A stretch of DNA of 60,683 nucleotides from Oscillospiraceae bacterium (lineage in GTDB: Bacteria > Bacillota > Clostridia > UMGS1883 > UMGS1540), in NCBI GenBank assembly GCA_015068765.1, contig SVJY01000006.1, positions 1 to 60,683 of the forward strand, written 5' to 3'. The notes below the pieces were generated by a model. That model had not been told where the DNA came from. It did not search any database and saw only the letters and a program-made list of their open reading frames with translations. Shown piece by piece: positions 2,903 to 56,436 of this stretch (the first letter of the stretch is position 1; each line of letters opens with the position of its first letter). The position numbers were made by a program, and so were the translations under genes.

Positions 2903-5900
2903 ATGCGTTTTAGAAAGCTTACGTCGCTTGTTTGTGTGCTCATGCTGTTATGCGGCATGGGGCATGGGGCAGCGGCGGCAGAAGCACCGTATAATCGGGA
3001 AGAGATTACGGCACACACGCTGGTGCATGACGAAAACGCCACGGAGCTTATAGTAAACGGCGGCTTCGAGGTTTTGGAATCGGAAACGAATCTCCAGGTA
3101 TGGGCGCTGTCAACCGGTACGCTCCGTGCAGGCGAAGCAGAGCGGACAGAGGATGCCCACAGTGGGATGTATGCCCTCCGCCTTTCAGCCGACGAGGAAA
3201 TACACCTTACCCAACAGGTGGGAATCAGCCGTCTGAAAAGCGGGAAAATTTGCGAGCTTTCTCTTTGGGTGAAGCCCCAGACGAACGAAAGCAGCCTGAC
3301 GCTTACGCAGTCCTTTGGTATTCGTAACGAGCAGATTCAGGATGAGGTGCTTACAGAAACGAATACGATAGAGTTTGCAGATGCCCGGGCAGGGGAGTGG
3401 ACACAAAAGATTCTACGCTTCGTTGTTCCCGAACGCATCACCTATACCTTGCTGGATATTTCCCTGCATAAGGATGAAGCAGTGCTGATAGATGATGTAT
3501 CCCTTCTTCTGGAGGGTGCACCGCCGGAGCCGGAAAAGCCTACCAAAAAAGAACCGGTTTTAGAAGACTATGAAATGGTGAAGAACGGCGGCTTTGAGGA
3601 GGGCACGGCAAACTGGGGCGTGGAGCCCGGGCAGTGGAATGATTTTATCAGCATTGTACCCGGCGGCGTGACCGGCAACTGCGTCAAGATTTTCAAGGAA
3701 CCGGACAACAGCAATAAAAACCCCCAGCTCCTTCAGCACATTTCCGGCTTTGAGGAGGGGGCGGAATACCAGATGCATTTCCGCTTGAAATCGCCGGGCG
3801 TTGATATGCTGGAATCGATTTCCTACGGCTTCCGCTGGGGTACAAACGGCGTGCGTATGGGGCACGACAAAACGGGCAACATGGTGCTTTTGCAAAATGA
3901 CAACTGGATAGATGTGTATCTTGACAGCGTCTGCCCGCCGGGTGCAAACACCTGCATGATTGACTTTCGTCACTTTGCAAAGGTTGGCTACTATATGGTT
4001 GACGATATAAGCGTGTATATGACGAAAAGGGCACCCTATGCCGAGGTGGAAACCGATGAAATCTTCTATTATACGGAGTGGAAGACGGGCGAGGTGACCG
4101 TTCGCGACAGAACGAAGACCGGTGCACTGCAAAACGGACGCTTCGTGCTGGAAATCCGTGACGGCGAAACGGCTGTCTTTACAAAGGAAGGAACGATGGC
4201 CGGTACGGTGGGTACACTGGAATTTCCCCTGACCGTTTTAGCGGAAAAGGGAAAGGAATACAGAGCCCACACTGCCGTATATGACGAAGCGGGTACGCTT
4301 TTAGAGGAATACGACAGTGCAATCTACCGCTACGACAGACCCACATACCTCGGGGCAGACGGTGTATTCCGTAAGCCGGACCGAAACGGCGTGATGCAGG
4401 AGTACAATGTTGTCCTCGGTAACGGTGTAACGAATCCGAGAATCAGCATCGTTGCCCCTTGCGGCGTTACCGTAGCACAGCTTGTTGGCGGGGCGTCCCT
4501 GCCGCTGAAGGAACGGCTGGATATGGTCGAAAAGGAAGGACTTTTAGCACAGATTGTTCTTTACAGCGGAAAAATGAGTGGCGGCCACCCGGAGATGCTG
4601 CCGGCAACAATAGACAAGGTTATGGCAGTAAAGGATCACCCTGCACTGTTCGGCTATAAAATTCAGGATGAGCCCATGCAGAAGGGCAATTCGGACGAGG
4701 AATTGGCACTGGCCTATAAGACCATTCGCGACCTCGATCCCCACCACCCGATTTACACCGTAGACTCCGGCGAAGCAAGCTACGAGCGTATGGGTAAGTT
4801 CTGCGACCTTATGGATATTGACGTATACCCCGGAAATGATCCGGAGCGTGCCTCCTTACTGGGCGAAAAAATCGAGGCGGCCGTCAAAGCGGTCAAGGGA
4901 CGAAAGCCCGTAGGCCTTCTGCAGCAGGCATTTGAACTTGGTGGCACGTTCCCCACAGCCGATGAATTCCGGCACTACGCCTATCAGGCACTGATGTCGG
5001 GTGCTTCCGGCTTTGGCTATCATTCCTTCGGGGAATCGACCACGCCCATAAGCCCCGAGCATTCCTCGTGGCCGGGCCTTGTGGAGATGGCCAAGTGGGA
5101 GCAGGGCTTTATGTTCGACAGCCTTGTAAAGGCGAAGAATCCCATGCTGAATGAGGAAAAAACAGAAAAAGTATGGTGGCGTACCTACGTACTGGACGGT
5201 AAAATTTACGCCATTGTCTTAAACCGACAGCTGGAGGAAAATACGGCGACGGTGACCCTGACGGGTGTGGACGGCGGCTACGGTGCCGAGGGCTATACCG
5301 CAAGGCGGATAGCAGGCGGCGAAGAAGAAACCGCTTTCGTAGACGGCACCACCTTTACGGCAACGCTTATCCCCCAAGCGGCGTATCTCTATGAGATTAC
5401 ACCGAATACGCCTGTGGATTTCAGCACCCTTCCCACCATGAAATTCCGGGATCTGACGGGGTATAACTGGGCACAAACCGCCATTTCTGCCATGGAAAAT
5501 GCAGGCGTAGTAACGGGTACAACCGTGTATCTGTTTGCACCGGGCGAGAAAATCACCCGCGGCGACTTTGCCTATTTCCTGCTAAACGCCTTGGGGCTTA
5601 CGGGCGAGGAAACCGCTTCCTTTGCGGACGTTCCTGAAGATGCCTATTATGCGAAGGCGATTGCCGCAGGGAAGGCGGCAGGTATCTTGCAAGGCATAGG
5701 CGATAACCGCTTTGACCCCGAACGGGAAATTTCACGCCAGGATATTATGACCATTACGGCACGGGGCGTAAAAGCATTCAAATCGCTTCCGGAGGGCGAC
5801 ATGGCAGTGCTTGATCGCTTTACGGATGCGGGGCAGATTGCAGAATACGCACGGCAGAGCGTAGCAGATATGACAAATGCCGGGCTGATTCTCGGTAACG

Positions 5901-5992
5901 GTGACGGCACCGTAAATCCCTTAGGCAGCACAACAAGAGCAGAGGCGGCAGTAATTGCAAGCCGCGTCTACCATATGCCGGTCGGTGCATAA
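2903..5992 (+). CDS. Secreted multidomain putative glycoside hydrolase: 2x CBM4/9-like, Ig-like, TIM barrel, 3x SLH
   Basis: Signal peptide; NGGFE...IDDV jelly-roll repeats; HPALFGYKIQDEP, RDLDPHHP and DIDVYP; C-terminal SLH motifs (ITRGDF, ISRQD, TTRAEAA). RBS GGAGG. Confidence 0.75.
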   Translation: MRFRKLTSLVCVLMLLCGMGHGAAAAEAPYNREEITAHTLVHDENATELIVNGGFEVLESETNLQVWALSTGTLRAGEAERTEDAHSGMYALRLSADEEIHLTQQVGISRLKSGKICELSLWVKPQTNESSLTLTQSFGIRNEQIQDEVLTETNTIEFADARAGEWTQKILRFVVPERITYTLLDISLHKDEAVLIDDVSLLLEGAPPEPEKPTKKEPVLEDYEMVKNGGFEEGTANWGVEPGQWNDFISIVPGGVTGNCVKIFKEPDNSNKNPQLLQHISGFEEGAEYQMHFRLKSPGVDMLESISYGFRWGTNGVRMGHDKTGNMVLLQNDNWIDVYLDSVCPPGANTCMIDFRHFAKVGYYMVDDISVYMTKRAPYAEVETDEIFYYTEWKTGEVTVRDRTKTGALQNGRFVLEIRDGETAVFTKEGTMAGTVGTLEFPLTVLAEKGKEYRAHTAVYDEAGTLLEEYDSAIYRYDRPTYLGADGVFRKPDRNGVMQEYNVVLGNGVTNPRISIVAPCGVTVAQLVGGASLPLKERLDMVEKEGLLAQIVLYSGKMSGGHPEMLPATIDKVMAVKDHPALFGYKIQDEPMQKGNSDEELALAYKTIRDLDPHHPIYTVDSGEASYERMGKFCDLMDIDVYPGNDPERASLLGEKIEAAVKAVKGRKPVGLLQQAFELGGTFPTADEFRHYAYQALMSGASGFGYHSFGESTTPISPEHSSWPGLVEMAKWEQGFMFDSLVKAKNPMLNEEKTEKVWWRTYVLDGKIYAIVLNRQLEENTATVTLTGVDGGYGAEGYTARRIAGGEEETAFVDGTTFTATLIPQAAYLYEITPNTPVDFSTLPTMKFRDLTGYNWAQTAISAMENAGVVTGTTVYLFAPGEKITRGDFAYFLLNALGLTGEETASFADVPEDAYYAKAIAAGKAAGILQGIGDNRFDPEREISRQDIMTITARGVKAFKSLPEGDMAVLDRFTDAGQIAEYARQSVADMTNAGLILGNGDGTVNPLGSTTRAEAAVIASRVYHMPVGA

Positions 5993-6004: not shown

Positions 6005-9000
6005 ATGAAACTGAAAAAAATATGTGCACTCCTTTGTACCTGCCTAATACTGTGCGGCATGGGCTTTTCTGCACAGGCGGCGGCGTATCCCTTTACGGAA
6101 ATTGCCGCCCACACACTGGTGGACAAGGTGAATGCACAGGAGCTTTTAAAAAACGGTGATTTTTCCACACCGGAGAGTGACACCAAGCCACTGGGCTGGG
6201 GGATAAACCCCGGCACCTTCGGCGAAGGGAAAACGGCAGAGTATATCCGCGGCGACGCATCGTATGTAAAGCTGAATTACCCCGGTACAGGGTATGCGGC
6301 ACTTTCGCAGGCTTTGAGCGTGCAGGACGCGGACGGAAAGAAATGCCAGCTCTCCGCACGGGTGAAGGGCGAAAACACAGAATTGGACATTCGTATCCGT
6401 GTTGCCTTTACCGTTTTGCAAAACGGTGCGGAAGTGGAGCTTGCCGACGTTCTCAATGTATATTTTACAGACCTAAGCACCAATAGCTGGACGCAAAAAA
6501 TTGTCGAGTTTACGTTGCCGGAAAATATCCGGAGAATTACACTGCGGTTCCAGCTGCACAGCGACCTAGAGGCGTATGTGGACGACATTTCCCTTCGTAT
6601 GGAGGGGCTTGCCGAAGACGCAATAGCGGAAAAACCGCCGGTGCTGGAGGACTACGAGATGCTTGAAAACGGCGATTTCTCGGAAGCGAGTGCGGACGGT
6701 CTTACGGTTGCGGCATGGCGACCGGAGCCGGGAAAGGGCGGTACCTTTGACGGCCGGGGCGCGGTTTTGGTAAAAGACGGTGGCGTACAGGGAAATTATG
6801 CGAAGGTTCTTTCCGGGGAAACATTTCCCCAGCTACGGCAGACTGTCAGGGGGCTCATGCCCACGGCGGAGTACCGTCTGATCTTCAAATACAAAAACCC
6901 GACCGCGGATGCCGTAAGCTTTTCCTGCCAGATGCAGTACACGAAGGGCGGTACGGATGCGGAGCTGGACGGCACAAAAAACATGATGGCGTATTACAGC
7001 GACACGTGGCAGGACGGATTTTTCGATTTTGAATGTCCGGAAGAGGTGGACGGCTGCCTTGTCAGCTTCCGAAACCTTTCAGCCGCAGGCGAGCTTTGTA
7101 TTGACGATGTCAGCCTCTATATGACGAGAAAGCCCTACCGTGCCCTTGTGGAGACGGATGAACGGTTTTATTATACCGAGTGGAAGACCGGATTCGTTAC
7201 GGTAGAGGACAGAGGAAACGGAGAATCTCTTGCCGGCGGAAAGGCTGTTTTCACTATTTTGGATGGCGATACAGCGGTACTGATGCCGCAGGAAAAGACG
7301 CTGACAGAAGAAAAGACCGTATTTGAATTTTCCACGGAGAAGGTGTTCTCTGAAAAGGGAAAGGAATATACCTCCGAGGTGAAAATTTACGATGCAGATG
7401 GAGAGCATGTAGAAACCCAGCGCCATCCGGTCTATCGGTACGACCGCCCCACCTATCTGGGAGAAGACGGCGTATTCCGTAAGCCCGACCGAAACGGAAA
7501 AATGATAGAGAAGAACATTTCTATCGGAAATAACGTACCCTTTACGCTTATCGATAAGGCGGGAGATGAGATAAGCGACCTTGGCATCACCGTGGTGCAG
7601 ATGGGTACAGATACAGAAAACCGCACGCTTTTAGAGCGTATGGATGCGGTGGAAGCGGCGGGTCTGCACGTGCTTATCTCTCTTTACAACGATAAGAAGA
7701 GCGGCGGACACCCCGATATGCTGGAAAACACCGTGCAGACGGTAAATACGGTTAAAAATCATCCCGCCCTGTTTGGCTATAAGGTACAGGATGAGCCGAT
7801 ACAGAAAATGAATACGGAGGATGAGCTGGCAACGGCCTATAAGCTTATCCGCGATCTCGACCCCCACCATCCTATTTATCTGGATGATTCGGGGGAGGGC
7901 TCCTATAAACGCATGGCCCGTGTCTGCGACATTATGGACATTGACCACTATCCGTCAAAAGGTGCCTACAGAGCCTCCGTCATCGGTGAAAAAATCGAGG
8001 CGGGCGTGGCGGCAGTAAAGGCCAGAAAGCCGGTATCGCTCCTCCAGCAGGGCTTTGAGATCGGCGGAGAGATGCCGACGGCGAATGAATTTCGCCACTA
8101 TGCGTATCAGACCCTATTTTCCGGCGGCTCTGCCGTAGGGTATCACTCCTTCGGCGGCGAGCCGGGGCATCTGGCACCGGCGCTTGATGAATGGGATGGT
8201 TTATGCGAGTTTGCCGAATGGGAGCTTACCTTCCTGTTTGATGCCACCGTCAACCGCAAGTATCCCATGCTGAATGAAGAAAAAACGGATACCGTTTGGT
8301 GGCGTACCTACGTAAAAGACGGCAAAATCTATGCGGCGATTCTAAACCGCCGGGTAGAAGCAACGAACACGGCAATCGTAAGCCTTTCCGATTTTGACGG
8401 CGGACATACGGCCGCAGGATATACGGCAAAGCGGATTGCCGGCGGCACGGCGGAAACCGTAGAGGTCACCGACAGCATTTTCCGGAAGGACCTTGAAGGC
8501 ATGGCGGCATACCTCTATGAAATCACGCCGAATAATACCGTAGATTTCAGCGACCTGGAAACGACGAAATACAGAGACCTTACCGGATATAACTGGGCAT
8601 ACACTGCCATCTTGGCAATGGAAAAGGCCGGGGTTGTCAATGATAACACAGCGGTAAGCTTTGCACCCGGCAAAAATATCACACGCGGCGACTTTGCCTA
8701 CTTCCTGATTCGGGCACTGGGGCTCACATCGAATGCAAGCGAGAATTTTGACGATGTGCCTTTAGATGCCCCGTACGCAAAGGAAATTGCCGCAGGGAAA
8801 AAACTCGGAATATTAAACGGGGTTGGAGAAAATCTGTTTAATCCCGAGGGCGAAATTACCCGTCAGGACCTTATGGCAATCGCGGCCCGCGGTATGCGAA
8901 TTTGCCTGGAGCTTGACGAAGGGAAGGAGGAGGATCTTGCGGGCTATGCCGACGCCGGTCTGATTGCAGAGTACGCAAAGCTGGATATTGCCGCAATGGT

Positions 9001-9118
9001 GCGTGCCAATATCGTAAAAGGCAATGCGGACGGCACGGTAAACCCCCTTGGCAACACAACGAGAGCCGAGGCGGCGGTAATTGTAAGCAGAATCAGAGAC
9101 TGGCAGAAGGACCCGTGA
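6005..9118 (+). CDS. Tandem paralog: secreted CBM-CBM-Ig-TIM barrel-SLH protein
   Basis: Same architecture as 2903..5992 (HPALFGYKVQDEP, YRYDRPTYLG.DGVFRKPDRNG, TTRAEAAVI). RBS AAGGAGG. Confidence 0.75.
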   Translation: MKLKKICALLCTCLILCGMGFSAQAAAYPFTEIAAHTLVDKVNAQELLKNGDFSTPESDTKPLGWGINPGTFGEGKTAEYIRGDASYVKLNYPGTGYAALSQALSVQDADGKKCQLSARVKGENTELDIRIRVAFTVLQNGAEVELADVLNVYFTDLSTNSWTQKIVEFTLPENIRRITLRFQLHSDLEAYVDDISLRMEGLAEDAIAEKPPVLEDYEMLENGDFSEASADGLTVAAWRPEPGKGGTFDGRGAVLVKDGGVQGNYAKVLSGETFPQLRQTVRGLMPTAEYRLIFKYKNPTADAVSFSCQMQYTKGGTDAELDGTKNMMAYYSDTWQDGFFDFECPEEVDGCLVSFRNLSAAGELCIDDVSLYMTRKPYRALVETDERFYYTEWKTGFVTVEDRGNGESLAGGKAVFTILDGDTAVLMPQEKTLTEEKTVFEFSTEKVFSEKGKEYTSEVKIYDADGEHVETQRHPVYRYDRPTYLGEDGVFRKPDRNGKMIEKNISIGNNVPFTLIDKAGDEISDLGITVVQMGTDTENRTLLERMDAVEAAGLHVLISLYNDKKSGGHPDMLENTVQTVNTVKNHPALFGYKVQDEPIQKMNTEDELATAYKLIRDLDPHHPIYLDDSGEGSYKRMARVCDIMDIDHYPSKGAYRASVIGEKIEAGVAAVKARKPVSLLQQGFEIGGEMPTANEFRHYAYQTLFSGGSAVGYHSFGGEPGHLAPALDEWDGLCEFAEWELTFLFDATVNRKYPMLNEEKTDTVWWRTYVKDGKIYAAILNRRVEATNTAIVSLSDFDGGHTAAGYTAKRIAGGTAETVEVTDSIFRKDLEGMAAYLYEITPNNTVDFSDLETTKYRDLTGYNWAYTAILAMEKAGVVNDNTAVSFAPGKNITRGDFAYFLIRALGLTSNASENFDDVPLDAPYAKEIAAGKKLGILNGVGENLFNPEGEITRQDLMAIAARGMRICLELDEGKEEDLAGYADAGLIAEYAKLDIAAMVRANIVKGNADGTVNPLGNTTRAEAAVIVSRIRDWQKDP

Positions 9119-9127
9119 AAGGAAAGG

Positions 9128-9697
9128 ATGCGCGATGTAGTATCCGATGCAGAGTACCTTGCGGCCGAGGAACGCACAGTTTTCTATGATATGCTGATGA
9201 CGGAAGGCGGTACATATGACGGCAATGTGTGGCGAACGTCTCGTGTGGAGAACGGCACCACGTATTATCTCTTCGTCAACAGCGGGCAGACGGCTTTTTC
9301 GGCGAACGTAGAGGGTGCATATGCAAGGGAAATAGTAACGGAGAACGGCAGCAGTGTTTCGGACAGGGCAAGCGGCGGCTTTACCGCTACGCTCCCGCCG
9401 AGAAGTAGTCTCTTTTTCTCCACCGGGGACACAGCATTGCCCGGTCTATACGTAGGCAATACCTTAAAAAACAGCTTTGCAGAGGGTATCGTACTTCGCA
9501 CAGCCGGCGCATACGAAATGGGAGCACTGTACCAAAGGTACGGCAACGCATGGGAGCTGGTTCGCGTATATGCGGATGGCGATTCTGTCACGGCAGGAGA
9601 AGGAACCTACAAATTCAAAACCTTTTTATGGGATGCGGCACTCTCGCCGCAGCATCCTGCGATCAGCGTAGGAAGCAAAACGAGGGTAACAAAATAG
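9128..9697 (+). CDS. Hypothetical protein matching only the C-terminal region (post-barrel beta domain plus W-P tail) of the paralog family
   Basis: VWRTSRVENGTTYYLFVN resembles VWWRTYVKDGKIYAAILN of its neighbours. Ends GALY...YKFKTFLWDAALSP. No signal peptide; AAGGA upstream. Confidence 0.6.
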   Translation: MRDVVSDAEYLAAEERTVFYDMLMTEGGTYDGNVWRTSRVENGTTYYLFVNSGQTAFSANVEGAYAREIVTENGSSVSDRASGGFTATLPPRSSLFFSTGDTALPGLYVGNTLKNSFAEGIVLRTAGAYEMGALYQRYGNAWELVRVYADGDSVTAGEGTYKFKTFLWDAALSPQHPAISVGSKTRVTK

Positions 9698-9739
9698 GAT
9701 TGCCCCTTCGGGGCGAAAAGAATGAAACAGGAGGAATAA

Positions 9740-11311
9740 GTGAATATGAAAACGAAAATTTTGGTTTTAGCACTGGTTCTGGTAATGATTGGCACATGTA
9801 TGCCCACGATGGCGGCGCAGCCGACGGGCGATAATCTGATTACAAACGGTTCCTTTGAGGATGGGCTTACGGGCTGGAAGCTTGCCCAGGGTGTAAGCGG
9901 TGAGCCGGCGCTCACTGTGTCTTCCGGTACAGTGGTAACAGATCAAAAAACGGATGGAAATAGCGCTGTCATGCTAACCGGCACAAGCGACGAGAGAACG
10001 GTACTCCGCCAGTTCCTGCCTGCCGGCACGCTGGAAGAAGGCAAGCAGTATGAACTTTCTGCCTACATCAATATTATAGCCGGCACGGGTGCAAGAATCG
10101 CCCTTCGCGAAGAGGATACTTATAACGGTGAAGAGGTGTGTGATTTAATCGGAACGACGCCGTCTGGTGCTAGCAGTAAATTCAGCTCGGCAGCAACGAA
10201 CGAATGGGTCCGTCTCTCGACGGTGTTTACCTGCAAGGAATCGACAGCAACAAACGGTTGCTCCTTCATTGTAGATATAAACAAAAGCGCGCTTACTCTC
10301 TATATCGATGATGTGCAGCTTCGGGAAACGGATACGGGCCTTTTAGCCGACAACGGTGAATTTGAGACCTTTTCAACGGATTTTAAGCTTCTGACCTATG
10401 ACCAGCATACAACATGGCTGGGTCGCAGAGCAGATCAGGGCTTCCCGCTTGATATGTCCCTGGTTCGCACAGAGGATCACGGTACAGCAATTTGCTTAAC
10501 CGGTAGAGGATCGGCAAACAGCACAATCTTTGTTCGTTTTGACGCCGCAAAGCTTTCAGCTCTCACTGCAGATACTACAATAAAATTGAGCTACCGTATG
10601 AAGGTTATCAAGGAGACGGTCAGCGAAGGCGATGCAGTGAATACATCTATCGAGCACAGGTCAGCGAGCCCCGCTCCAGGACGGTTTGCAAATACTGTTA
10701 CAGTACCGGGCGAATATTTCGATCAGTGGATTACCGTAGAGCATTGGTTTACCTACAGACCGGTTGCCGATCAGGTGTATAGAATTAATGCCGGAACACA
10801 TGCAAGTGACACAAAGATATTGTTTGACAGCTTCACAGCTAAGGTAGAGAGTGCCCCGGCTGTTGCGGGCGGGAAAACCATCAGCTGTACAGAAGCGGAG
10901 GTAGATACAACACGAAACAATGATGACGGATATGCAACGACTGCACCGACTACCTTTGTTACTACCCGCATAAGCGTGGACGAAGCGTATACGGTGGGCG
11001 AAACGGCTTCTCTGTATGTCCATTACCCCACGCTGGAGGAAACTGCACAGTCCGGCACAGTCGTCTGTGCAGTATACAGCGAAAGCGAAAATAACCTGAG
11101 AACATTGGAAACAGTGAAAACAGCTGATATTACCGCCATTCGGAGAGGTGAAAGCGGCACAGTGGTTGACTTCCCCTTGACCGGCATTACCATGCAGGAT
11201 GGCAAGACCTATACACTGGAGGCTATGGTATGGGACGGCGTTTCCGGTCTCAGACCGCTGGCAGGTGCTGCAAAGCTGGTTATGCCCATCGTAGAAGCGG
11301 CAACAGAGTAA
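9740..11311 (+). CDS. Secreted non-catalytic protein with 2 CBM-like modules and C-terminal W-P tail
   Basis: Signal peptide; NLITNGSFE...YIDDVQL and LLADNGEFE...LFDSF; ends CAVY...YTLEAMVWDGVSGLRPL. RBS AGGAGG. Confidence 0.7.
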   Translation: MNMKTKILVLALVLVMIGTCMPTMAAQPTGDNLITNGSFEDGLTGWKLAQGVSGEPALTVSSGTVVTDQKTDGNSAVMLTGTSDERTVLRQFLPAGTLEEGKQYELSAYINIIAGTGARIALREEDTYNGEEVCDLIGTTPSGASSKFSSAATNEWVRLSTVFTCKESTATNGCSFIVDINKSALTLYIDDVQLRETDTGLLADNGEFETFSTDFKLLTYDQHTTWLGRRADQGFPLDMSLVRTEDHGTAICLTGRGSANSTIFVRFDAAKLSALTADTTIKLSYRMKVIKETVSEGDAVNTSIEHRSASPAPGRFANTVTVPGEYFDQWITVEHWFTYRPVADQVYRINAGTHASDTKILFDSFTAKVESAPAVAGGKTISCTEAEVDTTRNNDDGYATTAPTTFVTTRISVDEAYTVGETASLYVHYPTLEETAQSGTVVCAVYSESENNLRTLETVKTADITAIRRGESGTVVDFPLTGITMQDGKTYTLEAMVWDGVSGLRPLAGAAKLVMPIVEAATE

Positions 11312-11331: not shown

Positions 11332-12114
11332 ATGAAATTACGTGATAAATTATGGCTTTGGGGGCAGACGGAGGGCTCGCACCATATAAACGATGCCTTC
11401 AAATTGCCGGGCATGAGCCGCATGACCCCCCTAGAGGGTGCCTACTACTTCGGCATCCGTAATATGTGCCGCGTCGTTATGATGGGGCTTCCGAAGCTCC
11501 CCTTCGACCAGGACCAGATGGTGCTGGATACGATGGAAAACGTGGTCTGGTCCATTATCGGTGACGGCACAAGCGGCAAGGCAGACTATACAGACGAAAT
11601 TATTCGTTTAACGCACCAATATCCGAACATCACGGGTGTAATCATGGATGATATTATGCGTCTGCCGCGAATGGAAATCTTCTCGCCGGAATCCTACCGG
11701 GTTTTCAAGGAAAAGCTGAAGGATGCGGCACGGCCGATGCCGCTGTGGTGCACCATCTACACCCATCAGCTGACAGAGGAGCGTATTCCCTACATTGCGG
11801 AATGTGACGTTCTCACCTTATGGACCTGGCATCAGGAGGATTTGCCAGCTATTCGTGAAAACCTAGCGAAGCTCCGCACGCTCTCCGGCGACCAGCCGAT
11901 CTACGGCGGCCTGTATATGTGGGACTATGGCAACAAAAAGGAAATCAGCGATGATTTGATGCAGCTACAGCTGGATACCTACTACGAGCTTCTTCGGAAT
12001 AAGGAGATCGCCGGTGTAATCGTCTGCTCGAATTGCTGTGCCGATGTGGGACTTAGGTCCTCCGTCATGGTACGGGATTGGATTCGTTTGCACGGGGATG
12101 AAGAGATAGAATAG
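11332..12114 (+). CDS. Uncharacterised cytoplasmic protein, probable (beta/alpha)8 barrel, possible glycoside hydrolase
   Basis: Alternating strand/helix pattern with WLWG, SRMTP.EG, YPNITGVIMDD, LTLWTW and YMWDYG. RBS GAGG. Confidence 0.55.
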   Translation: MKLRDKLWLWGQTEGSHHINDAFKLPGMSRMTPLEGAYYFGIRNMCRVVMMGLPKLPFDQDQMVLDTMENVVWSIIGDGTSGKADYTDEIIRLTHQYPNITGVIMDDIMRLPRMEIFSPESYRVFKEKLKDAARPMPLWCTIYTHQLTEERIPYIAECDVLTLWTWHQEDLPAIRENLAKLRTLSGDQPIYGGLYMWDYGNKKEISDDLMQLQLDTYYELLRNKEIAGVIVCSNCCADVGLRSSVMVRDWIRLHGDEEIE

Positions 12115-12205: not shown

Positions 12206-14155
12206 ATGAAAAAACTAAAAAGAGGCATACATATTGATTTTCATACGCTGCCCGGCATTTATAATTTTGGGGAAGGCTTTGATGCCGAGGTGTTTGCCGA
12301 ACGGCTGAAAAATGCCAATGTGGAGATTATCAATGCATTTTTTCAGTGCAACATCGGTCATGTGTATTATCCGACGAAAATCGGCGTGCCCTACCCGGAT
12401 ATGCAGGGGGATATGTTCGGTGATATAGTCCGGGAGTGCCGAAAAAGGGACATTCGCGTCGTGGGATATACGAATACGGCCATAAACCATGTCCAGGCGA
12501 TTTTGCACCCCGAATGGCAGAGAGTGGACAGCGAGGGAAGAGTTTTGCAGCATGAGAGGACAATAACCAGTAGCTTTTTCCGCACGATGTGCTATAACAG
12601 TGACGGATACCGCAAGTATTTATCTTCCCTCATCCGCGAGGTGATGGAGCTGTATGATATCGACGGTATTTTTGCCGACTGTATGACGCCGAGCCCCTTC
12701 TGTCATTGTCCGAAATGCACACGGGAAATGATAGAAGAGGGACTGGATGTTACAAATGAAAACCACGTGCGGTATTTTGCCCATAAAAAGTTTTTTGAAT
12801 TTGCCCATATGATTCGCTCAGCCGTGCCCGAAGGGAAGCTGGTACAGCAGACCGGCGTCCCCTTTGACTGGGACGGGGCACAGAATGTAAGCACGCACGG
12901 AGAGCTGGAATGCCTCCCGGCAGGAAGATGGGGGTACGACTTTTTCGGACCGCAGGTCGCCTATATGCGGAAATGCCGTGACCAGATTCTGTATATGTCC
13001 GGTCGTTTTCACTATAACTGGGGCGATTTCGGCGGCTATAAATCCATAGCCTCTATGGAAAATGACTGCTTCGATGCCCTTTCCCAGGGCGTACAGGTTT
13101 CGATTGGTGACCATATGCACCCGGCAGGCAATTTGGATAAAAAGCTGTATGAGGATATCGGTGCGCTTTTCGAGCGTGTAAAAGCATATGAGGAATGGAC
13201 GGATGATGCCGTATACCGTTCGGAAATCGGTATTCTCAATGATAAAACCGTAGTTACGAAGGATGAAATGCGTGGCGGCCTTGGGCGAAACCCCTCGGTA
13301 CGCGGTGCGGCAAGAATGCTGGCGGAGCTGAAATACGGCTTCGATATTTTAAATGAGGATATGGACTTTTCACCGTACAAGCTGCTGCTTTTACCGGATG
13401 ATTTGTACATGTCAGAAAATCTGCGGAAAAAGCTTTCTGCCTTTTTGGCGGACGGCGGCAAGGTGATTTCCTCCGGCAGTGCAGGGCTGAATAACGAAAA
13501 AACCGATTTTGCATGTAAGGAATGGGATTTCATCCGCTTCGACGGCATAGATGAGCATAATGTTTCATTCTTTACCGATGCCCTTCGTCAAAGACCCATT
13601 GCCATGTACAGACCGGGCATACGGATGACCTCCGCATACAAAACGGCAGACTATATAAAGCCGTATTTTAACCGCCACTTTGACGGCATACACGGCTATC
13701 GGTACGTACCGCCGGAAAAGACAACGGGACAGGCGGCACTGGCGGAAAAGGACGGCGTGTGCCATATCTGCTTCCGTATTTTTGAAAGCTATTATTTTGA
13801 GGCGTATGCCTTGCATAAACAGCTTCTGGATAAAATTATAAAGCGTTTTATGCCTGCACCGCTTCTGAAGGCAGAGGGAATCCCCTCTACCGCACGGGTG
13901 ACGCTGACGGGCACAAAAGCCTATGAGCTTCTCCATATAAAGACGAGCTTCCCGGAAAAAAGAGGCCACGCCATGAGCGTGATTGAAGAGCATGTAACGC
14001 TTCCGGCGGGACAATGTGTTTCGGTAAAGGGAAGCTATAAAGCGGCGTACCGTTTGCCGGAAAAGACCCCTGTTTCGATTGAAAAAGACGGCACGTACAC
14101 GAAGGTGTTCCTGCCTGAAATCGAAGGCTATGCCATGTTTCTCTTAGAAAAATAG
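12206..14155 (+). CDS. GH151-like (GHL6) alpha-L-fucosidase with beta-galactosidase trimerisation-like domain
   Basis: N-terminal IHIDFHT...FDAEVFAERLK...GHVYYPTKIG, DGIFAD, C.C..C, RFH..WGDFGG.K and SIGDHMHP, recognised as GH151-type motifs. No signal peptide. Confidence 0.7.
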   Translation: MKKLKRGIHIDFHTLPGIYNFGEGFDAEVFAERLKNANVEIINAFFQCNIGHVYYPTKIGVPYPDMQGDMFGDIVRECRKRDIRVVGYTNTAINHVQAILHPEWQRVDSEGRVLQHERTITSSFFRTMCYNSDGYRKYLSSLIREVMELYDIDGIFADCMTPSPFCHCPKCTREMIEEGLDVTNENHVRYFAHKKFFEFAHMIRSAVPEGKLVQQTGVPFDWDGAQNVSTHGELECLPAGRWGYDFFGPQVAYMRKCRDQILYMSGRFHYNWGDFGGYKSIASMENDCFDALSQGVQVSIGDHMHPAGNLDKKLYEDIGALFERVKAYEEWTDDAVYRSEIGILNDKTVVTKDEMRGGLGRNPSVRGAARMLAELKYGFDILNEDMDFSPYKLLLLPDDLYMSENLRKKLSAFLADGGKVISSGSAGLNNEKTDFACKEWDFIRFDGIDEHNVSFFTDALRQRPIAMYRPGIRMTSAYKTADYIKPYFNRHFDGIHGYRYVPPEKTTGQAALAEKDGVCHICFRIFESYYFEAYALHKQLLDKIIKRFMPAPLLKAEGIPSTARVTLTGTKAYELLHIKTSFPEKRGHAMSVIEEHVTLPAGQCVSVKGSYKAAYRLPEKTPVSIEKDGTYTKVFLPEIEGYAMFLLEK

Positions 14156-14190: not shown

Positions 14191-17100
14191 ATGAAAAAGA
14201 CAATAGCAGCCATGTTAGCAGTTCTTTTGCTATGTTCCGGTGTTCTATCCGTTTCGGCAGAGGAAAGGGAGTACCCTTTTAGGATTTCCCCCACGGTGGA
14301 AATGCGGGAGGATGGGGAAGCCTATTCAATCAAGGAGCGTCCGATAAAAGAGGGCGATTATAAAATCCAAACCTTGACAAAGCATACAAAGACAGCAGGG
14401 AAAAACGGCGATGAAAATATTTTCCCGGACGGTGGCTTTGAAAATGCGACAGAAACCTTTCTTACGGGATGGAGCGGAAACGGCGTTGAAGGCGGCGTAA
14501 TCGGTGAAACCAACGCCTTTATTGTGAATGATGCCCAAGAGGGCAAAAAGGCACTCAAGCTATCCGGACCGGAAGGAAAGAACGTACACGGCGTACAGGT
14601 TTTTACGAATATGATACCGGGCGAGGAATATGAGTTATCTGCTTGGTGTAAACGAATTTCCGGTACAGCCAATATTTCCTTAGGCTTTGGTTATGTTGAG
14701 CCGGAGACAGATATGAGTATGGAATACGGCAATCGGGTAAACCTAAGCTTTTCGGATGCCCCTGCCAATACCTGGACGCAGAAAATTATTCAGTTTACCA
14801 TGCCGGAGGATGCCAATAAAGCAACGATAATGGCTCGCCTTATGGGCGGCGGTGAAATTTATTATGACGGCATTATGCTTCTCGGGCCCCAAAAGCCGGT
14901 AGAAATTGCGGCAATGCCGGAATATGTAAAGCCCGGAGAGGGTACGGAAAACATCTTCAAAAACGGGGGCTTTGAAGAGGAAACGGAAGTCACGCATATC
15001 AAGCACGGCACAGAATATGAAGGCGTTTGGTTTGACCGTGACGACGATGTTATGAAAGGGCACTTTACCTATTCGGATGCGGAAGCCCATTCGGGTAAGC
15101 AGTCCATTCATTTAAAGGGCGATAATTTGAATATGCCCTGGCTGGGGCAGGTCATCAAGGTTGAGCCGGAAACGACCTACCAGATTTCAGCTTGGGTAAA
15201 GGTAGTAGACCCCCGAAATGTGAATTTCCGCTTCCAGGGTGACGGGTATAAAAATTCCCCGGAGCAGACAGAAGAAAACTATATATCGGATGCACGTACC
15301 ACCGTTCATCCCGGCATAGACCCGAAAAACCTTGAGTGGCAGCAAATTGTCGGCAACTTTACAACCCACCAGGATGCGGAGTATTATTGCTTTATGCTGC
15401 GTGGTGGTGATAAGATACAGGATATGTATTTTGACGATATAGAGCTTTACCCGCTCGCAGGTCTCAGCAAAAAGCTTCGCAGCTTTATTCCGGACGATGT
15501 GTTCTACTATTCCGATTATGAAGGAAACGGGTATGCCGACCTTACCACCTACAGAAGCACCACCGACGAAAATCAGCAAGTGCGTTTTCGCTTCTATGAT
15601 GCGGATAAGGTAGTCAAGGAAGAAATCGTAACGCTTCCTGCGGACGGTACATATCGTTTCTATTATCCCTTAGAGCTTCTGGCGGAAAAGAAAAAGGAAT
15701 ATAAGCTTGAAGCTATGATTTTGGGTCCAAACGGCGAGGAAACGGACGACACGATGGAGCGTTTCATTTATAAATATGATCGCCCCACCATGCTGAATGA
15801 AGCCTTGGAGCTTATGACGAGTGATGGAACGAAAATTGAGAATTACATACTGGCACAGGGTACAACGCCGGCGGTCATGTGGCAAATTCCCGAAGTCGGT
15901 GCGACCATCGGCCGTGCAATCGGTACCTGGCGAACAGATAGAATCGAACGACTGGATGTCGCATACGAAGCCGGGATGTATGCTACCGTTACCCTCTTTA
16001 ATCACGAGGACATCCGTGACCCGGAGGTGTATGCCGACGTGGTAAATACGATTAATATGGTAAAAGACCATCCGGCACTGATCGGCTGGTATTTATGGGA
16101 AGAGCCGAAATTTGCAGAGTCTACCTATGACCTACAGGAAAACATCCGCATCGGTGCGAAGCTGATTCGTGACATGGACCCAAAGCATCCTCTTTTCGGC
16201 GTTGTTTCTCAGCCGCTCCATGCAGGAGAGCTTGGTAAATTCTGCGACATCTTAGATATGGACATCTATCCGGCACAAACGTATGATGGACAGCGTGGTA
16301 TGCGTATTGCAGAGGCAATTTCCATGGGTCTGGAAAGTAACGATTGGCAAAAGGTTGTTTCCATCATGACCCAGGCCTTTGAATGGTTTGAATTCCAGCC
16401 CACCTGGAACGACCTTAGAAACTATATTTATATGGCCATGTTTGAAGGTGCCGGCGGCTTCAGCTTCCATACCTTCGATAAAGTAGACGGTATTGCTGAA
16501 AACGGTACGGGTGTTCAGCCCGGCGACGAAAGATGGAATGGTATGGTGAAGGCATCAGAGTGGGAGTATGACTTTATCTTTGACCACTTTGTAAACCAAA
16601 AAGCGCCCCTATTTAACGAAGGCAGAACAGAGGATGTCTGGTGGAGAACGGTTGTCCGTGACGGGGAGCTTTACGCCATTGCCGTAAACACCTGGGAAAC
16701 GAAGGAAAGCACGGTAGATATTCCTCTCGTTGACTATACGGGTACAATTAAAATAAACGGTGCAAAGGCGGAGCTTATAGAGGGCGGCGAAGCGAAAACC
16801 GTCAATATTTCCGGCGATACCTTCCGTGTAGAGCTTGAGAAATTCCAGTCCGCTATCTTCAAGATTACCCCCAATGAAGCGGTAGATTTCTCGAATGTAA
16901 AGGTTACGCGGTTCCGTGACCTGCAGCACCACGTCTGGGCAAGAGATGCCATTATTGAAATGGATGAAAAGGGCATTGTAAACGACCTTTCTGCGGTTGC
17001 GTTTGCACCGGGCAGAAATATTACCCGTGGCGACTTTGCTATGTTCTTAGTGCGTGCACTCGGTCTTACCGGTGACGGCTCCAAGGTAAGCTTTGACGAT

Positions 17101-17433
17101 GTTTCTCCCAAAAGAGAGTATGCGGAAGCCCTTGCCATCGGCAAAGCGGCGGGCATCTTAAACGGTGTGGGCGAGAATAAATTTAACCCGGATGCGGAAA
17201 TTTCCCGCCAGGATATGATGACGATTATCAGCCGTGGTATGGCACTCTCCGGGGATAGCGATTTATCGGCATTTTCCGACAGCGGCCTCATTGCCGACTA
17301 TGCACTTCCCCACGTGAAGGCAATGATTGCCTCCGGTCTTGTAAAGGGTAATGCCGACGGCACCATAAACCCCAAAGGCAATACCACAAGAGCAGAAGCG
17401 GCTGTGATTATGCAGAGAATTGTAAATCGATAA
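14191..17433 (+). CDS. Secreted CBM-CBM-Ig-TIM barrel-SLH paralog
   Basis: Signal peptide; DGGFE/NGGFE modules; HPALIGWYLWEEP and DILDMDIYP; C-terminal SLH repeats. RBS AAGGAG. Confidence 0.75.
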   Translation: MKKTIAAMLAVLLLCSGVLSVSAEEREYPFRISPTVEMREDGEAYSIKERPIKEGDYKIQTLTKHTKTAGKNGDENIFPDGGFENATETFLTGWSGNGVEGGVIGETNAFIVNDAQEGKKALKLSGPEGKNVHGVQVFTNMIPGEEYELSAWCKRISGTANISLGFGYVEPETDMSMEYGNRVNLSFSDAPANTWTQKIIQFTMPEDANKATIMARLMGGGEIYYDGIMLLGPQKPVEIAAMPEYVKPGEGTENIFKNGGFEEETEVTHIKHGTEYEGVWFDRDDDVMKGHFTYSDAEAHSGKQSIHLKGDNLNMPWLGQVIKVEPETTYQISAWVKVVDPRNVNFRFQGDGYKNSPEQTEENYISDARTTVHPGIDPKNLEWQQIVGNFTTHQDAEYYCFMLRGGDKIQDMYFDDIELYPLAGLSKKLRSFIPDDVFYYSDYEGNGYADLTTYRSTTDENQQVRFRFYDADKVVKEEIVTLPADGTYRFYYPLELLAEKKKEYKLEAMILGPNGEETDDTMERFIYKYDRPTMLNEALELMTSDGTKIENYILAQGTTPAVMWQIPEVGATIGRAIGTWRTDRIERLDVAYEAGMYATVTLFNHEDIRDPEVYADVVNTINMVKDHPALIGWYLWEEPKFAESTYDLQENIRIGAKLIRDMDPKHPLFGVVSQPLHAGELGKFCDILDMDIYPAQTYDGQRGMRIAEAISMGLESNDWQKVVSIMTQAFEWFEFQPTWNDLRNYIYMAMFEGAGGFSFHTFDKVDGIAENGTGVQPGDERWNGMVKASEWEYDFIFDHFVNQKAPLFNEGRTEDVWWRTVVRDGELYAIAVNTWETKESTVDIPLVDYTGTIKINGAKAELIEGGEAKTVNISGDTFRVELEKFQSAIFKITPNEAVDFSNVKVTRFRDLQHHVWARDAIIEMDEKGIVNDLSAVAFAPGRNITRGDFAMFLVRALGLTGDGSKVSFDDVSPKREYAEALAIGKAAGILNGVGENKFNPDAEISRQDMMTIISRGMALSGDSDLSAFSDSGLIADYALPHVKAMIASGLVKGNADGTINPKGNTTRAEAAVIMQRIVNR
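17289..17415 (+). repeat. 127-bp exact direct repeat, copy 2
   Basis: Identical to 1-127. Confidence 0.95.
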
Positions 17434-21454: not shown

Positions 21455-23086
21455 CTATTTACTGCTCCGTAAGGCGTTACGGGTTATTTTGCCCGAAGTG
21501 GTTTTCGGTAATTCGGTTACATACTCAATTTTCCGGGGGTATTTATAAGGTGCCGTCATTTTCTTCACATAGGCTTGAAGCTCCTTCGTCAGCTCGTCCG
21601 AGGCTTCAAAGCCCGGTGCCAGCACCACAACGGCACAGACAATTTGTCCGCGAATTTCATCCGGGCGACCGATGATGGCACATTCCTTAACCGCCGCGTG
21701 GGTGTTTAAAATACTTTCAATTTCAAAGGGCCCGATGCGGTAGCCGGAGCACTTAATCATATCGTCATTTCGTCCCACATACCAGTAGTATCCGTCCTCG
21801 TCCTCGTAGGCGATATCGCCGGTATGGTAGATGCCATCTTCGATGGGGTTGATTTTTTCGCCGTCCTGATAATAATAATCCAAAAGCCCTACCTGCTTGC
21901 CGTCCTTGACGAACATAACCACCTCGCCCTCGTCGCCTGCCGGACAGCGGTTGCCGTCCTTATCAATCAGAGCCACGTCATAAAGGGGAGAGGGTTTACC
22001 CATGGAGGAGGGGCGGATGTCCAGCCACTGGAAGGAGCAGGTAATGGGCGTACCCTCACTCTGCCCGTAGCCCTCGTGGATATAGTGACCGCATAGGTCA
22101 TAAAATGCACTGTTTACCTCGCCGCTTAAGGGCTCGCCTGCGGTGGCAAACCACCGGATGGACTCCAGGTGCTCACGCCGAACACCTGCTTTCAGAAGGA
22201 AGCGGTACATGGTGGGCGGAATACACAGGGAAGTGGGCTTAAATTCCTTCATATGCTCCATAAGCTGTTCCGGGTCGAAGCGAATGGGATCGTAGCCTAA
22301 AATCGCACTGCCGCAAATCCACTGTCCGTAAATGTTGCCCCAGCCGAACTTTGCCCAGCCGCTGTCAGACTGCGTAAGGTGCAGGCCGTTATTTTGCACG
22401 CACTGCATATATTTCGCCGTCATGATATGCCCTAGGGGATAGGTGCGGTTATGCACCGCCATTTTCGGATAGCCCGTTGTGCCGGAGGTGAAGTACAGAA
22501 GCATCTGGTCCTCGTTCTTCCCTTCGTCCGGTTCTGCATAAAGATCGCAATTTTCGTATTCTGCATTGAAGTAAGGATAGCCCTCCACCGGCTCGTCCCC
22601 GGCAAAAATCGCCGTACATTTGGTGCGGAGAGATGCTACCTGCTGGCAGACAAAATCATCCTTCACGGCGATGACATAGTGGGCGTCTGCCTGGGAAAGG
22701 CGGTAGTCAATGTCCTTTGCCCGAAGCTGGATGGATGCCGGAATGAGCACCGCACCGATTCTGTGCAGTGCCACGGCGATAATCCAGTACTCGTACCGGC
22801 GACGCAGAAGGGTGAGCACGCGGTCGCCCCGGCGAATCCCCATTTCCGTAAAATATGTTGCCGCTTTTTTGGAAAGCACCGAAATATCCGTAAAGGTAAA
22901 GGTTCTGGAAAAGCCGTTATCATCACAATAAACCAATGCACGCTTGTCCGGCTCCAGTGCCGCCCATGCATCCACCACGTCTCTGGCAAATTCAAATTTT
23001 TCCGGCACCTCCAGCTGAAAATTTTCTCTGAAATCCTCATAGCTTTCAAATTCCGAACGCTTTAAAAATCGGTTTAACAGTTCCAT
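21455..23086 (-). CDS. AMP-binding acyl-CoA synthetase (short/medium or branched-chain acid-CoA ligase)
   Basis: YFTSGTTGYPK P-loop, YGQSE, YHTGD, GRNDD.IK.SGYRIGP.EIE and LPKTTSGKI. Start moved to the ATG after AAGGGAG. Confidence 0.9.
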   Translation of the reverse strand: MELLNRFLKRSEFESYEDFRENFQLEVPEKFEFARDVVDAWAALEPDKRALVYCDDNGFSRTFTFTDISVLSKKAATYFTEMGIRRGDRVLTLLRRRYEYWIIAVALHRIGAVLIPASIQLRAKDIDYRLSQADAHYVIAVKDDFVCQQVASLRTKCTAIFAGDEPVEGYPYFNAEYENCDLYAEPDEGKNEDQMLLYFTSGTTGYPKMAVHNRTYPLGHIMTAKYMQCVQNNGLHLTQSDSGWAKFGWGNIYGQWICGSAILGYDPIRFDPEQLMEHMKEFKPTSLCIPPTMYRFLLKAGVRREHLESIRWFATAGEPLSGEVNSAFYDLCGHYIHEGYGQSEGTPITCSFQWLDIRPSSMGKPSPLYDVALIDKDGNRCPAGDEGEVVMFVKDGKQVGLLDYYYQDGEKINPIEDGIYHTGDIAYEDEDGYYWYVGRNDDMIKCSGYRIGPFEIESILNTHAAVKECAIIGRPDEIRGQIVCAVVVLAPGFEASDELTKELQAYVKKMTAPYKYPRKIEYVTELPKTTSGKITRNALRSSK

Positions 23087-23104
23087 GTTCATCTCCCTTT
23101 CAAC

Positions 23105-23372
23105 AAAAAAATCATCCGCCCGCATTAGGACGAATGATTCGTGGTACCACCTAATTTCACTCCGTGCTCACACACCGGAGCCTCTCCCGGCACACTTCCA
23201 TGCCGTATCCCATTTTACGGTCGGACTTCCGTCGAAGTCTACTCAAAGGCATACGCCTTTTTTCGGTCCGCAGCTCCGAGACTACTTCCCTGCCCTTCCG
23301 CCGAAACGCTTCCACCATCCGCTTCTCTCTATAGGTTTTGGTGACAGATACTCCTTCTCTTCATTGCCTTTT
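23105..23372 (-). ncRNA. T-box riboswitch leader, valine specifier (GTA)
   Basis: Minus strand shows GA motif/AGTA, AGAGA and GGTGGAA stem I elements, specifier GAA-GTA (GTA at 23283-23285), T-box AATTAGGTGGTACCACG, then the AATCATTCGTCC/GGGCGGATGATT terminator and a U-tract. Confidence 0.9.
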
Positions 23373-51800: not shown

Positions 51801-51920
51801 TGAGGACCAGCCGGTGTCCCAGCCGTCAGCCCAGATATACTCGACGGCTTCCTCTGCCAGAACAGGCAAGGTGGGAAGCATGAGTAGCATTGCCAGAAAA
51901 CATACGAGCAGTTTTTTCAT
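48855..51920 (-). CDS. Secreted CBM-CBM-Ig-TIM barrel-SLH paralog
   Basis: Signal peptide; YWDDV/YFDDM modules; HPMVLGWMVQDEP and DILATDPYP; SLH motifs ITRGDF, ITRQD, TTRAEAA. RBS AAGGAGG. Confidence 0.75.
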   Translation of the reverse strand: MKKLLVCFLAMLLMLPTLPVLAEEAVEYIWADGWDTGWSSYTTEKGIEAAVTDEDANSGTYSMKVWNSLEDNTRIWTRIKGLEPGRTYKASVMVKIAGKNLPDKAGAVLRITGNYKDGAGAAIAYSDRISSTNKRWTKLTATFIYPKDKNRLILCLDTGLVLEGSTVYWDDVVIEGTDLDINGSFEKVTEVKPEVIVIPETSTNLVNNTSFEEHDGVSVSGWTAYQNFSSSNPYVSITSEKVRTGNSAIKIQSSEVGKNPWVSQMMHVKPGVEYVVSVWYYIESLDKELVNSSGAYIKMEPYGDPKNPSKTVLDGATASETIVEPNSPSDGWKKLVTKVAAGIECNGLAIYARLGGAGVVYFDDMEMYQLTAPSKFSLDTDWGVYYPDYKEGVAKVIPTADLTEENTTVSFAFKDGKNVLLKKDNIPVSGKEEVSFVYPTSLFTEMAKTYTVTATLRDASGAVLEERSRNVYMFERSPYIREDGVYLLNKTTPFYPIIAYHSTGEDAAPVLVEGGINTIQLHFGGNVSGLEKQLAICEKYNIYAFVCLYFNGKPAAHPDNIATNTDVIEDFKDHPMVLGWMVQDEPFIHGSYDEVIEQLCNSYAFIRRIDPEKPVYTLDNAASTFYETSKYVDILATDPYPTSKHDPATFIATQTANMREAARGDKMICPIVQTYEGGIFPSQDQLRSSLYQSLFEGAQSFGYFAFGDARIIDGKTIPLNETDLWPAIKEFMAVDLKDDMAFRVFAGKDIPTFNDVRNDTFWYRSWEKDGKLYVVILNRSNEEEREVEIKLESFDGSVSVGAFSGKIVSGGKGSYSGNGILKATLQPCAAQLWEITPSGTVDFSVSVPFTYFDMNGYGWARNAAELMREKGITYDPVRDKFRPGEKITRGDFAMFLVRTLGLSGEATENFADVDPSAHYAKDIAIGRAAGILNGVGDNKYNPEAEITRQDLMTIVARGMELSGDIDLQAFSDSDMVSDYALPHVKAMIKKGLVKGNADGTLNPLGNTTRAEAAVIMQRILK

Positions 51921-56254: not shown

Positions 56255-56336
56255 GTTTATCATCCTTTCAGTTTTTGGTTTTCGTTCCAAACAGAGAGTA
56301 AGGCAGATCCTTCCGTTTGAACTATTGTACAAATTG

Positions 56337-56365
56337 ATTATACTAAAAGTCGCTTTTTTTTGCAA
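56337..56365 (-). promoter_or_regulatory. Sigma-A promoter of the CBM/GH three-gene unit
   Basis: TTGCAA-17 nt-TATAAT. Confidence 0.7.
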
Positions 56366-56436
56366 TAAGGTACAAAGCAAAAAGTGCAATTCGTCAACAG
56401 AAAAGTAAAATACGCAAAGAAAAGCAAAAAAAACGG

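Follow-up and report, generated by a model that had tools for sequence, protein, structure and literature searches.

INTRODUCTION

S-layer homology (SLH) domains are helical and bind pyruvylated wall polymers, and the dockerin of cellulosomal enzymes is a small, Ca-binding helical module. The C-terminal domain (CTD) of the type IX secretion system (T9SS), represented by Por_Secre_tail, is a beta-sandwich of 80-100 amino acids with which many secreted proteins of a single genome end, although they are otherwise unrelated. To our knowledge, T9SS is found only outside Bacillota. Here we describe a domain, hereafter called the tail, that ends many secreted proteins of a Clostridia lineage. The tail was studied in a contig of 60,683 nucleotides from an Oscillospiraceae bacterium (GenBank assembly GCA_015068765.1, contig SVJY01000006.1; this whole stretch is hereafter the window), where it forms the C-terminus of the protein encoded at 9746-11311 (+ strand) and recurs at the ends of three other open reading frames (ORFs). 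An earlier note, made from the sequence of the window alone, had grouped these four C-termini and compared them to a dockerin or a T9SS CTD.

The tail and the SLH triplet (PF00395) occupy the same C-terminal place on the same kind of secreted protein, which resembles glycosidases or carries carbohydrate-binding modules (CBMs). The two are encoded in the same gene clusters and are swapped between paralogues. They have no sequence relation: The SLH triplet is composed of 44-residue repeats and spans ∼180 amino acids, whereas the tail is an all-beta domain of ∼100 amino acids, and the SLH model matches none of the four tail stretches. Like the CTD of T9SS, the tail is a short beta-sandwich at the end of secreted proteins, but its host belongs to a Clostridia lineage. 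Dockerins resemble the tail in concept, being C-terminal on proteins similar to carbohydrate-active enzymes, and the tail could likewise tether its proteins to SLH-anchored partners encoded nearby. In other respects the two differ: Dockerin_1 (PF00404) is not among the Pfam matches (E≤5) of 27 tails collected from the genome, the tail is modeled as a beta-sandwich, and no cohesin-like partner was identified.

RESULTS AND DISCUSSION

A domain family at the C-termini of secreted proteins

The protein encoded at 9746-11311 has a signal-peptide-like N-terminus and a CBM_4_9 domain at residues 32-178 (Pfam, E 4.5e-12). Its tail is encoded at 10955-11308 on the + strand (amino acids 406-523 of ORF 9740-11311) and is matched by the hidden Markov model (HMM) of the family with a domain E-value of 4.7e-23. 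The ATG at 9746 is the probable start because a database protein of 521 amino acids (P0151) is identical to the 9746-11311 product; the GTG at 9740 is possible too. The earlier note had marked 10990-11311, the last 106 codons of this ORF, which fall inside the tail. The four motifs that it quoted are present in the translations, each at an ORF end.

The pairwise likeness of the four tails is weak. When each was compared in a database of the four sequences, the best BLASTP E-value was 3e-4, and the tail of ORF 9128-9697 gave values worse than 0.01 against each of the other three. An iterative search, which had been suggested as a check, nevertheless gathers a family. The window is contig C2 of a genome, G000, that comprises 1.73 Mb in 57 contigs and is 77% complete, and its six-frame translation yields 12,091 ORFs of at least 60 amino acids. 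A phmmer pass over these ORFs with the four tails gave further matches, nearly all at ORF ends, and an HMM rebuilt over four rounds settled on a set of 27 ORFs at a domain E-value below 1e-3 (31 at E<0.05). No more than 0-9 residues separate the match from the stop codon in any of the 27. The likeness of the tails is not a chance effect, because 27 ORFs match and all do so at their ends.

Signal-peptide-like N-termini (M-K/R-hydrophobic-AxA), as judged by a hydrophobic-window heuristic and by eye, are present in 25 of the 27 ORFs. The remaining two are 9119-9694 in the window and C20:22884-23372 elsewhere in the genome. An alignment of the 27 tails (A2, with the tail of 9746-11311 as its first row) has the consensus ...a.l..AlY....g..L..v... 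...v.vP...g.Y.vKaFlWds.sgl.P..., in which Y41 is invariant and P101 nearly invariant. The N-terminal parts of the proteins match Pfam CBM_4_9, weakly Glyco_hydro_2_C and the Glyco_hydro_42 TIM barrel, or Big_2, such that the tail is joined to bodies as unlike as CBM-only, TIM-barrel-like and Big_2 proteins.

The tails of ORFs 9740, 51935 and 54650 form one main family of about 90-125 amino acids. The second of these (51938-52201, - strand; domain E 2.5e-13) ends a secreted protein with a signal peptide, two CBM_4_9 domains and a TIM-barrel-like region in Pfam scans (51935-54646, - strand). The third (54653-54967, - strand; domain E 2.6e-18) ends the gene 54650-56263, which lies in ORF 54650-56461, starts at 56263 or 56254 and encodes a signal peptide at MINMKLTKK.... 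The earlier note took all four tails for a single conserved domain, and this stands for the three of the main family. The fourth, at 9419-9694 (+ strand) within ORF 9128-9697, is best described from its profile scores as a divergent, shorter subtype: Its domain E-value is 7.8e-13 when it is in the training set and 0.0021 when the HMM is trained without the subtype, and hhalign relates it to the main family with a probability of 93%.

Known domain models do not account for the tail. Pfam scans of the tail-bearing proteins gave no match on the tails. When the 27 tails were scanned singly against Pfam (E≤5) and NCBIfam (E≤1), only scattered lone matches were obtained, none of them convincing (best E 0.0037); CARDB (PF07705) was not among the Pfam matches. 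The A2 profile matched no PDB sequence at E≤10. A homologue with 72% identity is named, in one source, only as 'carbohydrate binding domain-containing protein [Clostridia bacterium]'. The description of the domain as unnamed is therefore borne out. We conclude that the tails are copies of a real, independent and so far unnamed domain that ends many secreted CBM_4_9 and glycosidase-like proteins.

Distribution of the family

Among 1.84e9 representative proteins, the A2 profile gives 1272 matches at E≤1e-3 and 38 at E≤1e-10. Architectures were counted in 154 fetched proteins that are also matched by the HMM, with 150 of the 1272 profile matches looked at. The domain lies within 15 amino acids of the C-terminus in 146 of the 154 and is internal in eight, and three of these eight (P0062, P0129 and P0149) end in an SLH triplet. 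The 154 still include P0010 and P0027, which reach their scores by adding up insignificant repeats (over 16 and 14 stretches, respectively); these two proteins are not relatives. The assertion that the domain is always terminal is thus true of all 27 ORFs in the proteome-wide check of G000, but not of the wider family.

Within the order, represented by 31 relatives from three families (G000 counted), 29 genomes carry a match at E≤1e-3, with 0-41 matches each, and 23 carry one at E≤1e-5. In an even sample across the phylum, only 3 of 301 genomes (G000 counted) have a match at the latter threshold. The tail family is a lineage-specific, strongly expanded module of one order of small-genome gut Clostridia. 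A longer search with A2 gave nine proteins, and querying with residues 25-400 of the protein that starts at 9746 gave four close homologues, which are too few for a comparison of their C-termini.

The tail takes the place of an SLH anchor

Paralogues in the window differ in whether a tail or an SLH triplet ends them. The products of the neighbors 51935-54646 and 48855-51920 (both - strand) share 37% identity over their residues 1-805 and 1-836, respectively. After this shared body of ∼800 amino acids, the former protein continues into its tail and the latter into three SLH repeats, and homology stops at residue 805. Because one body can be followed by either a tail or an SLH triplet, the tail is a separable module that stands at the place of a wall anchor.

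The genes are also clustered. An SLH-encoding ORF is located within 3 kb on the same strand for 18 of the 27 tail ORFs of G000, and an SLH or another tail ORF within 3 kb for 25. The clusters in the window hold in addition a GHL6/GH42M-like enzyme, an aldose 1-epimerase and an AraC regulator. SLH domains are abundant in this genome, with 117 matches in 51 ORFs, where they are C-terminal in 23, N-terminal in 17 and in the middle in 11. In four ORFs of ∼1700 amino acids (C11:4827-9962, C23:16851-22007, C36:12442-17502 and C45:11097-16340), the SLH triplet is at residues about 680-870 and ∼850 residues follow it; three of these ORFs adjoin tail genes.

The two neighbors compared above belong to a set of paralogous secreted proteins of 900-1160 amino acids, which is represented in the window by 2903-5992, 6005-9118, 14191-17433, 48855-51920 and 51935-54646, and at further loci of G000 (L002, L011, L016, L023 and L026). 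These proteins combine CBM_4_9 modules with a TIM-barrel region that scores below threshold for Glyco_hydro_2_C and Glyco_hydro_42 (14-22 bits). On this basis they may possibly represent an undescribed glycosidase family of clan GH-A.

Predicted fold of the tail

AlphaFold2, given alignment A2, produces an all-beta model of seven strands (mean predicted local distance difference test score, pLDDT, 79.9; predicted template modeling score 0.71), in agreement with the proposal that the tail is beta-rich. Comparison of this model by Foldseek and VIA-align returns a broad set of immunoglobulin (Ig)-like sandwiches, with a top Z of 10.6 and about 66 chains at Z≥8, none of which stands out. The set includes arrestin-fold N-lobes, GH2 Ig-like domains, the N-domain of GH66 dextranase, transglutaminase barrels, CARDB and small CBMs. 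Rows such as 7op6, 5axg, 5t9a and 3wnk, in which GH2 Ig-like domains figure, have Z values of 9.4-10.1 and root-mean-square deviations of 2.9-3.5 Å over 102-109 residues, and the CARDB structure 3idu gives a Foldseek E-value of 1e-3. The tail is modeled, in short, as a generic Ig-like beta-sandwich.

This general fold is common to CARDB and to Ig-like accessory domains such as those of GH2 enzymes, the GH66 dextranase N-domain and domain D of CGTase. Sequence identity to the tail is only 6%-18%, and no HMM relation is found. Moreover, the accessory domains occupy an internal position in one enzyme architecture, whereas the tail is a mobile terminal module.

A predicted homodimer (A2, two copies) scored 0.02 against a mark of 0.42, which tells nothing either way. 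The top cluster retrieved from the ESM Atlas, in which 12% of members are SlaA-like, was not relied on, as recognition was below a useful level.

A tail subtype behind an in-frame TGA codon

The divergent tail of ORF 9128-9697 lies in an unusual setting. Upstream, at 6005-9118 (+ strand), is a gene for an SLH-anchored protein with CBM_4_9 and TIM-barrel-like regions (Pfam SLH x3, E 2e-26; weak Glyco_hydro_2_C). Its stop codon is a TGA at 9116-9118 (+ strand), in the context CCG TGA AAG, and ORF 9128-9697 is in the same frame, with this single TGA between the two. The open stretch behind the stop, 9119-9697 (+ strand), encodes a module with no signal peptide. An AlphaFold2 model of this extension (pLDDT 85) contains two helices, a C-terminal sandwich of glycosidase type and a short tail of six strands; Foldseek on the model gave only weak rows, the best at E 3e-3. 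A like arrangement is present at C20:19152-22880 and 22884-23372. In the paralogues C57_39385, C10_42362 and C33_17495, the SLH repeats and a homologous module of ∼190 amino acids form one ORF. Thus the statement that the tail never occurs on an SLH-bearing protein is wrong for this subtype, which follows SLH triplets, whether fused to them or separated by an in-frame TGA.

Among 87 genomes of the order, six are matched by a profile of the module (alignment A3), with 35 matches in all, and these six belong to the window's own family. Seventeen of the 35 lie in short open frames of 126-192 amino acids, two of which are cut by contig ends. At all 15 junctions that can be read upstream (two in G000, 10 in G008, two in G006 and one in G010), a third SLH repeat is followed by TGA and then by A. 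Pro precedes the stop codon in 12 of the 15 and AAG follows it in 10. By comparison, the stop codons of long ORFs in G000 are TAA in 788 cases, TGA in 249 and TAG in 215 (TAA 63%, TGA 20%), and the 249 TGA codons are followed by A in 38%, preceded by Pro in 3.2% and followed by AAG in 4.8%.

Homology among the modules starts right at the stop, and the frame behind it is open for about 160-192 codons in every case. In-frame start codons are found at no conserved position, and eight loci have no early ATG. Between the window copy and its G008 orthologue, the nonsynonymous (dN) and synonymous (dS) divergences are 0.33 and 1.73 over 187 codons downstream from the TGA, and 0.11 and 0.58 over 130 codons upstream; the downstream ratio of about 0.19 is an estimate from one pair with saturated dS. 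At the corresponding place in an orthologue from G010 (L034, 56% identical), the sequence reads TCA TGG AAG and the frame is continuous. Contigs from three other public DNA runs, one of which may be the source sample, bridge 9116-9118 unchanged. The 9128 copy belongs to a subtype that always stands behind an SLH triplet, and it follows a conserved Pro-TGA-A junction in the same frame. It evolves under purifying selection and lacks both a signal peptide and a conserved start.

The A3 profile also matches the C-termini of two SLH-less tail proteins, C36:17471-19717 in G000 and L072 (G008:C12:136218-139619), in which the sandwich and tail are located directly behind an enzyme body. This arrangement suggests that the extension may have arisen when the 3' part of a tail-type paralogue was joined behind an SLH-type gene.

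Readthrough or separate genes?

The A1 protein of bacteriophage Q-beta is a UGA readthrough product. As in this case and in background readthrough in Escherichia coli by tRNA-Trp, the locus described here presents a UGA followed by an open, selected coding stretch that lacks a start, and Trp, the residue expected from such events, is the one encoded by TGG in L034. It differs in that chromosomal genes for surface proteins are concerned, that a whole folded two-domain module follows the stop, and that no stimulatory RNA structure was found.

Several features by which programmed readthrough would be recognized are present. The TGA is retained across diverged homologues (15 of 15), the downstream frame is open and under purifying selection, and the modules lack an independent start or export signal, although the window copy has an ATG four codons behind the stop. 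As to the junction context, the picture is mixed: TGAA is invariant and Pro is frequent at position -1, but no conserved RNA structure follows. One study reports that TGA is the leakiest stop codon of E. coli, is mostly replaced by Trp, and terminates with more error when Pro or Gly is at position -1 or -2 (PMC11126739). These data fit the Pro-TGA context seen here. Variants of tRNA-Trp that read UGA in bacteria are described in a second source (PMC13092985).

Other kinds of recoding were considered. Selenocysteine insertion finds no counterpart: Neither tRNA-Sec at the gathering score nor the SelB wing domain was detected in any of four genomes, of which G000 is 77% complete and the other three 92%-98%. 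A genome-wide reassignment of TGA is rejected, as this codon terminates 249 long ORFs and is closely followed by the starts of ordinary genes. A special tRNA-Trp was not found in G002, G006, G008 or G010, whose anticodon stems all have 5 bp and so are not of the 4-bp kind; G000 has no tRNA-Trp among its 33 tRNAs. In the D stem, the tRNA-Trp(CCA) of G010 and G002 (L076 and L080) has U11-A24, a pair that is also present in the classical mutant of tRNA-Trp that suppresses UGA.

The principal alternative takes ORF 9128-9697 and its 14 counterparts for small genes in their own right, translated by reinitiation or from their own starts, or else for decaying remnants. In the window, a good Shine-Dalgarno-like AAGGAAAGG is combined with an ATG 9 nt behind the TGA, and an in-frame ATG occurs within 15 codons at 7 of the 15 loci. 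But a separate gene would not be expected to begin its homology right at the stop of another, nor to lack both a conserved start position and, in eight loci, any early ATG. The absence of a signal peptide is likewise difficult to reconcile with separate translation of a module that is extracellular in the fused forms. All 15 frames remain open for 160-190 codons, with the low dN/dS noted above, and every stop is TGA even though TAA makes up 63% of stops in G000. The TGG in place of TGA in L034 points the same way. We regard separate genes or remnants as rather unlikely.

Several observations weigh against readthrough itself. Reinitiation is possible at the Shine-Dalgarno-like site of the window copy. 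The 15 junctions are paralogues and orthologues related by descent, not 15 independent events. A conserved RNA structure was looked for behind the stop at the junctions and none was seen (0 pairs). The tRNA-Trp(CCA) of G006 and G008 (L079 and L077) has the canonical form (5-bp anticodon stem, U11.G24), and no public RNA runs are listed for window positions 8600-9900.

On balance, we think it somewhat more likely than not that some readthrough of the TGA takes place, with Trp the most likely residue, to give two isoforms. A fraction of ribosomes would then read the UGA of 6005-9118, and the SLH protein would exist as a short isoform and as one that is about 190 amino acids longer and ends in a tail. 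In a more specific version, to which we give somewhat less than an even chance, readthrough at the Pro-UGA-A junction is programmed in this SLH protein family of one family of gut Clostridia: Most chains would end behind the SLH anchor, and a minority would insert Trp and run on into the beta-sandwich and tail. The tail, both here and on SLH-less proteins, would be a surface-assembly domain, and the long isoform could serve as a wall-fixed docking point for the tail proteins encoded beside it. Full-text literature searches returned no paper that joins readthrough, UGA and S-layer homology, and among the leading titles on bacterial readthrough there was nothing on SLH or surface proteins.

Possible roles of the tail

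The exchange of tail for SLH and the clustering of their genes support a role at the surface or in glycan capture, and make anchoring or assembly plausible. The tail is present on signal-peptide proteins that have no other anchor. It would bind a component of the wall or S-layer and in this way hold or organize its proteins at the cell surface; alternatively, its partner would be a product of the same SLH-rich gene clusters. Such a tail would be an alternative or a supplement to SLH anchoring. The suggestion of an anchoring or assembly domain is accordingly kept as plausible, and a role of the tail in retaining or arranging proteins at the surface is a reading to which we give somewhat less than an even chance. 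Two proteins in the window might possibly serve as partners. In the products of 191-2887 and 59712-60683 (the latter runs off the end of the window), SLH domains are N-terminal, right after the signal peptide, and a long C-terminal part with no assignment follows, which makes them candidate S-layer or scaffold proteins.

Some results run counter to a surface-holding role. The co-occurrence of the domain and SLH in some proteins weakens a strict alternative-anchor idea, and the eight internal copies indicate that the terminal place is not obligatory. Because the Ig-like fold is ordinary and no comparison is prominent, the model says nothing specific on function. The tails (median isoelectric point 4.69) are no less acidic than the remainder of their proteins and do not contrast with SLH triplets either; their charge therefore gives no hint of wall binding.

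A different function is conceivable for the same domain. The tail might be a new CBM-like family that provides a second glycan specificity on freely secreted proteins, in which case the paralogues would be cell-bound if they carry SLH and released if they carry a tail. Small beta-sandwich CBMs are present in the fold lists (8wae and 8wac, Z 8.7-9.2; Wzt CBD, 8.4), the host proteins are CBM_4_9- or glycosidase-like and encoded in a sugar-utilization cluster, and aromatic residues are conserved (Y41 and the W/F of the FLWD motif). The CBM rows rank no higher than dozens of unrelated Ig-like rows, however, and the consensus and model appear to place the conserved residues in strand patterns typical of a core. 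Moreover, a location behind SLH and next to the wall would be odd for a substrate-binding module. We consider this explanation rather improbable.

More doubtful still is the view of the tail as an inert Ig-like domain, structural or a spacer, that binds nothing itself and is terminal only by descent in one expanded family. The generic fold, the internal copies and the lack of a surface-charge signature would all be expected of a spacer. Yet the body also exists with SLH directly behind it and so does not need the tail, and a spacer would hardly be joined to such unlike bodies or remain terminal in all 27 ORFs of G000 and in 146 of 154 relatives. Finally, although up to 41 matches per genome and the position of a ∼100-amino-acid beta-sandwich at the very end of signal-peptide proteins recall the T9SS CTD, the secretion role suggested in the earlier note, with the tail as a C-terminal sorting signal for a dedicated export or attachment machinery and perhaps removed afterwards, is highly improbable given the internal copies (three of eight with a C-terminal SLH triplet), a subtype made behind an SLH anchor, and the failure of Por_Secre_tail, FlgD_ig and sortase-type models to match any of the 27 tails (Pfam E≤5, NCBIfam E≤1).

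Taken as a whole, the best explanation of the data would be a domain family with a surface role together with a 9128 copy made by readthrough, a combination that we rate close to, though still short of, an even chance.

Neighboring genes

The tail gene is separated from the following SLH gene by two others, 11332-12114 and 12206-14155, whose products lack signal peptides. The first encodes 260 amino acids with no Pfam match and the second a GHL6 + GH42M-like protein. They probably carry out cytoplasmic steps of the same sugar pathway.

CONCLUSIONS

In a little-known order of gut Clostridia, up to about 40 surface or secreted proteins of a genome carry the tail, which has been missed by both Pfam and NCBIfam. 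If the TGA junction is indeed read through, it would represent a rare instance of programmed stop-codon readthrough in bacterial chromosomal genes, and one that adds a whole folded module. Gene callers split such proteins, which leaves orphan 'hypothetical proteins' of 160-190 amino acids without start signals. Naming the tail and finding its ligand would explain how glycan-binding proteins are arranged in these SLH-rich bacteria.

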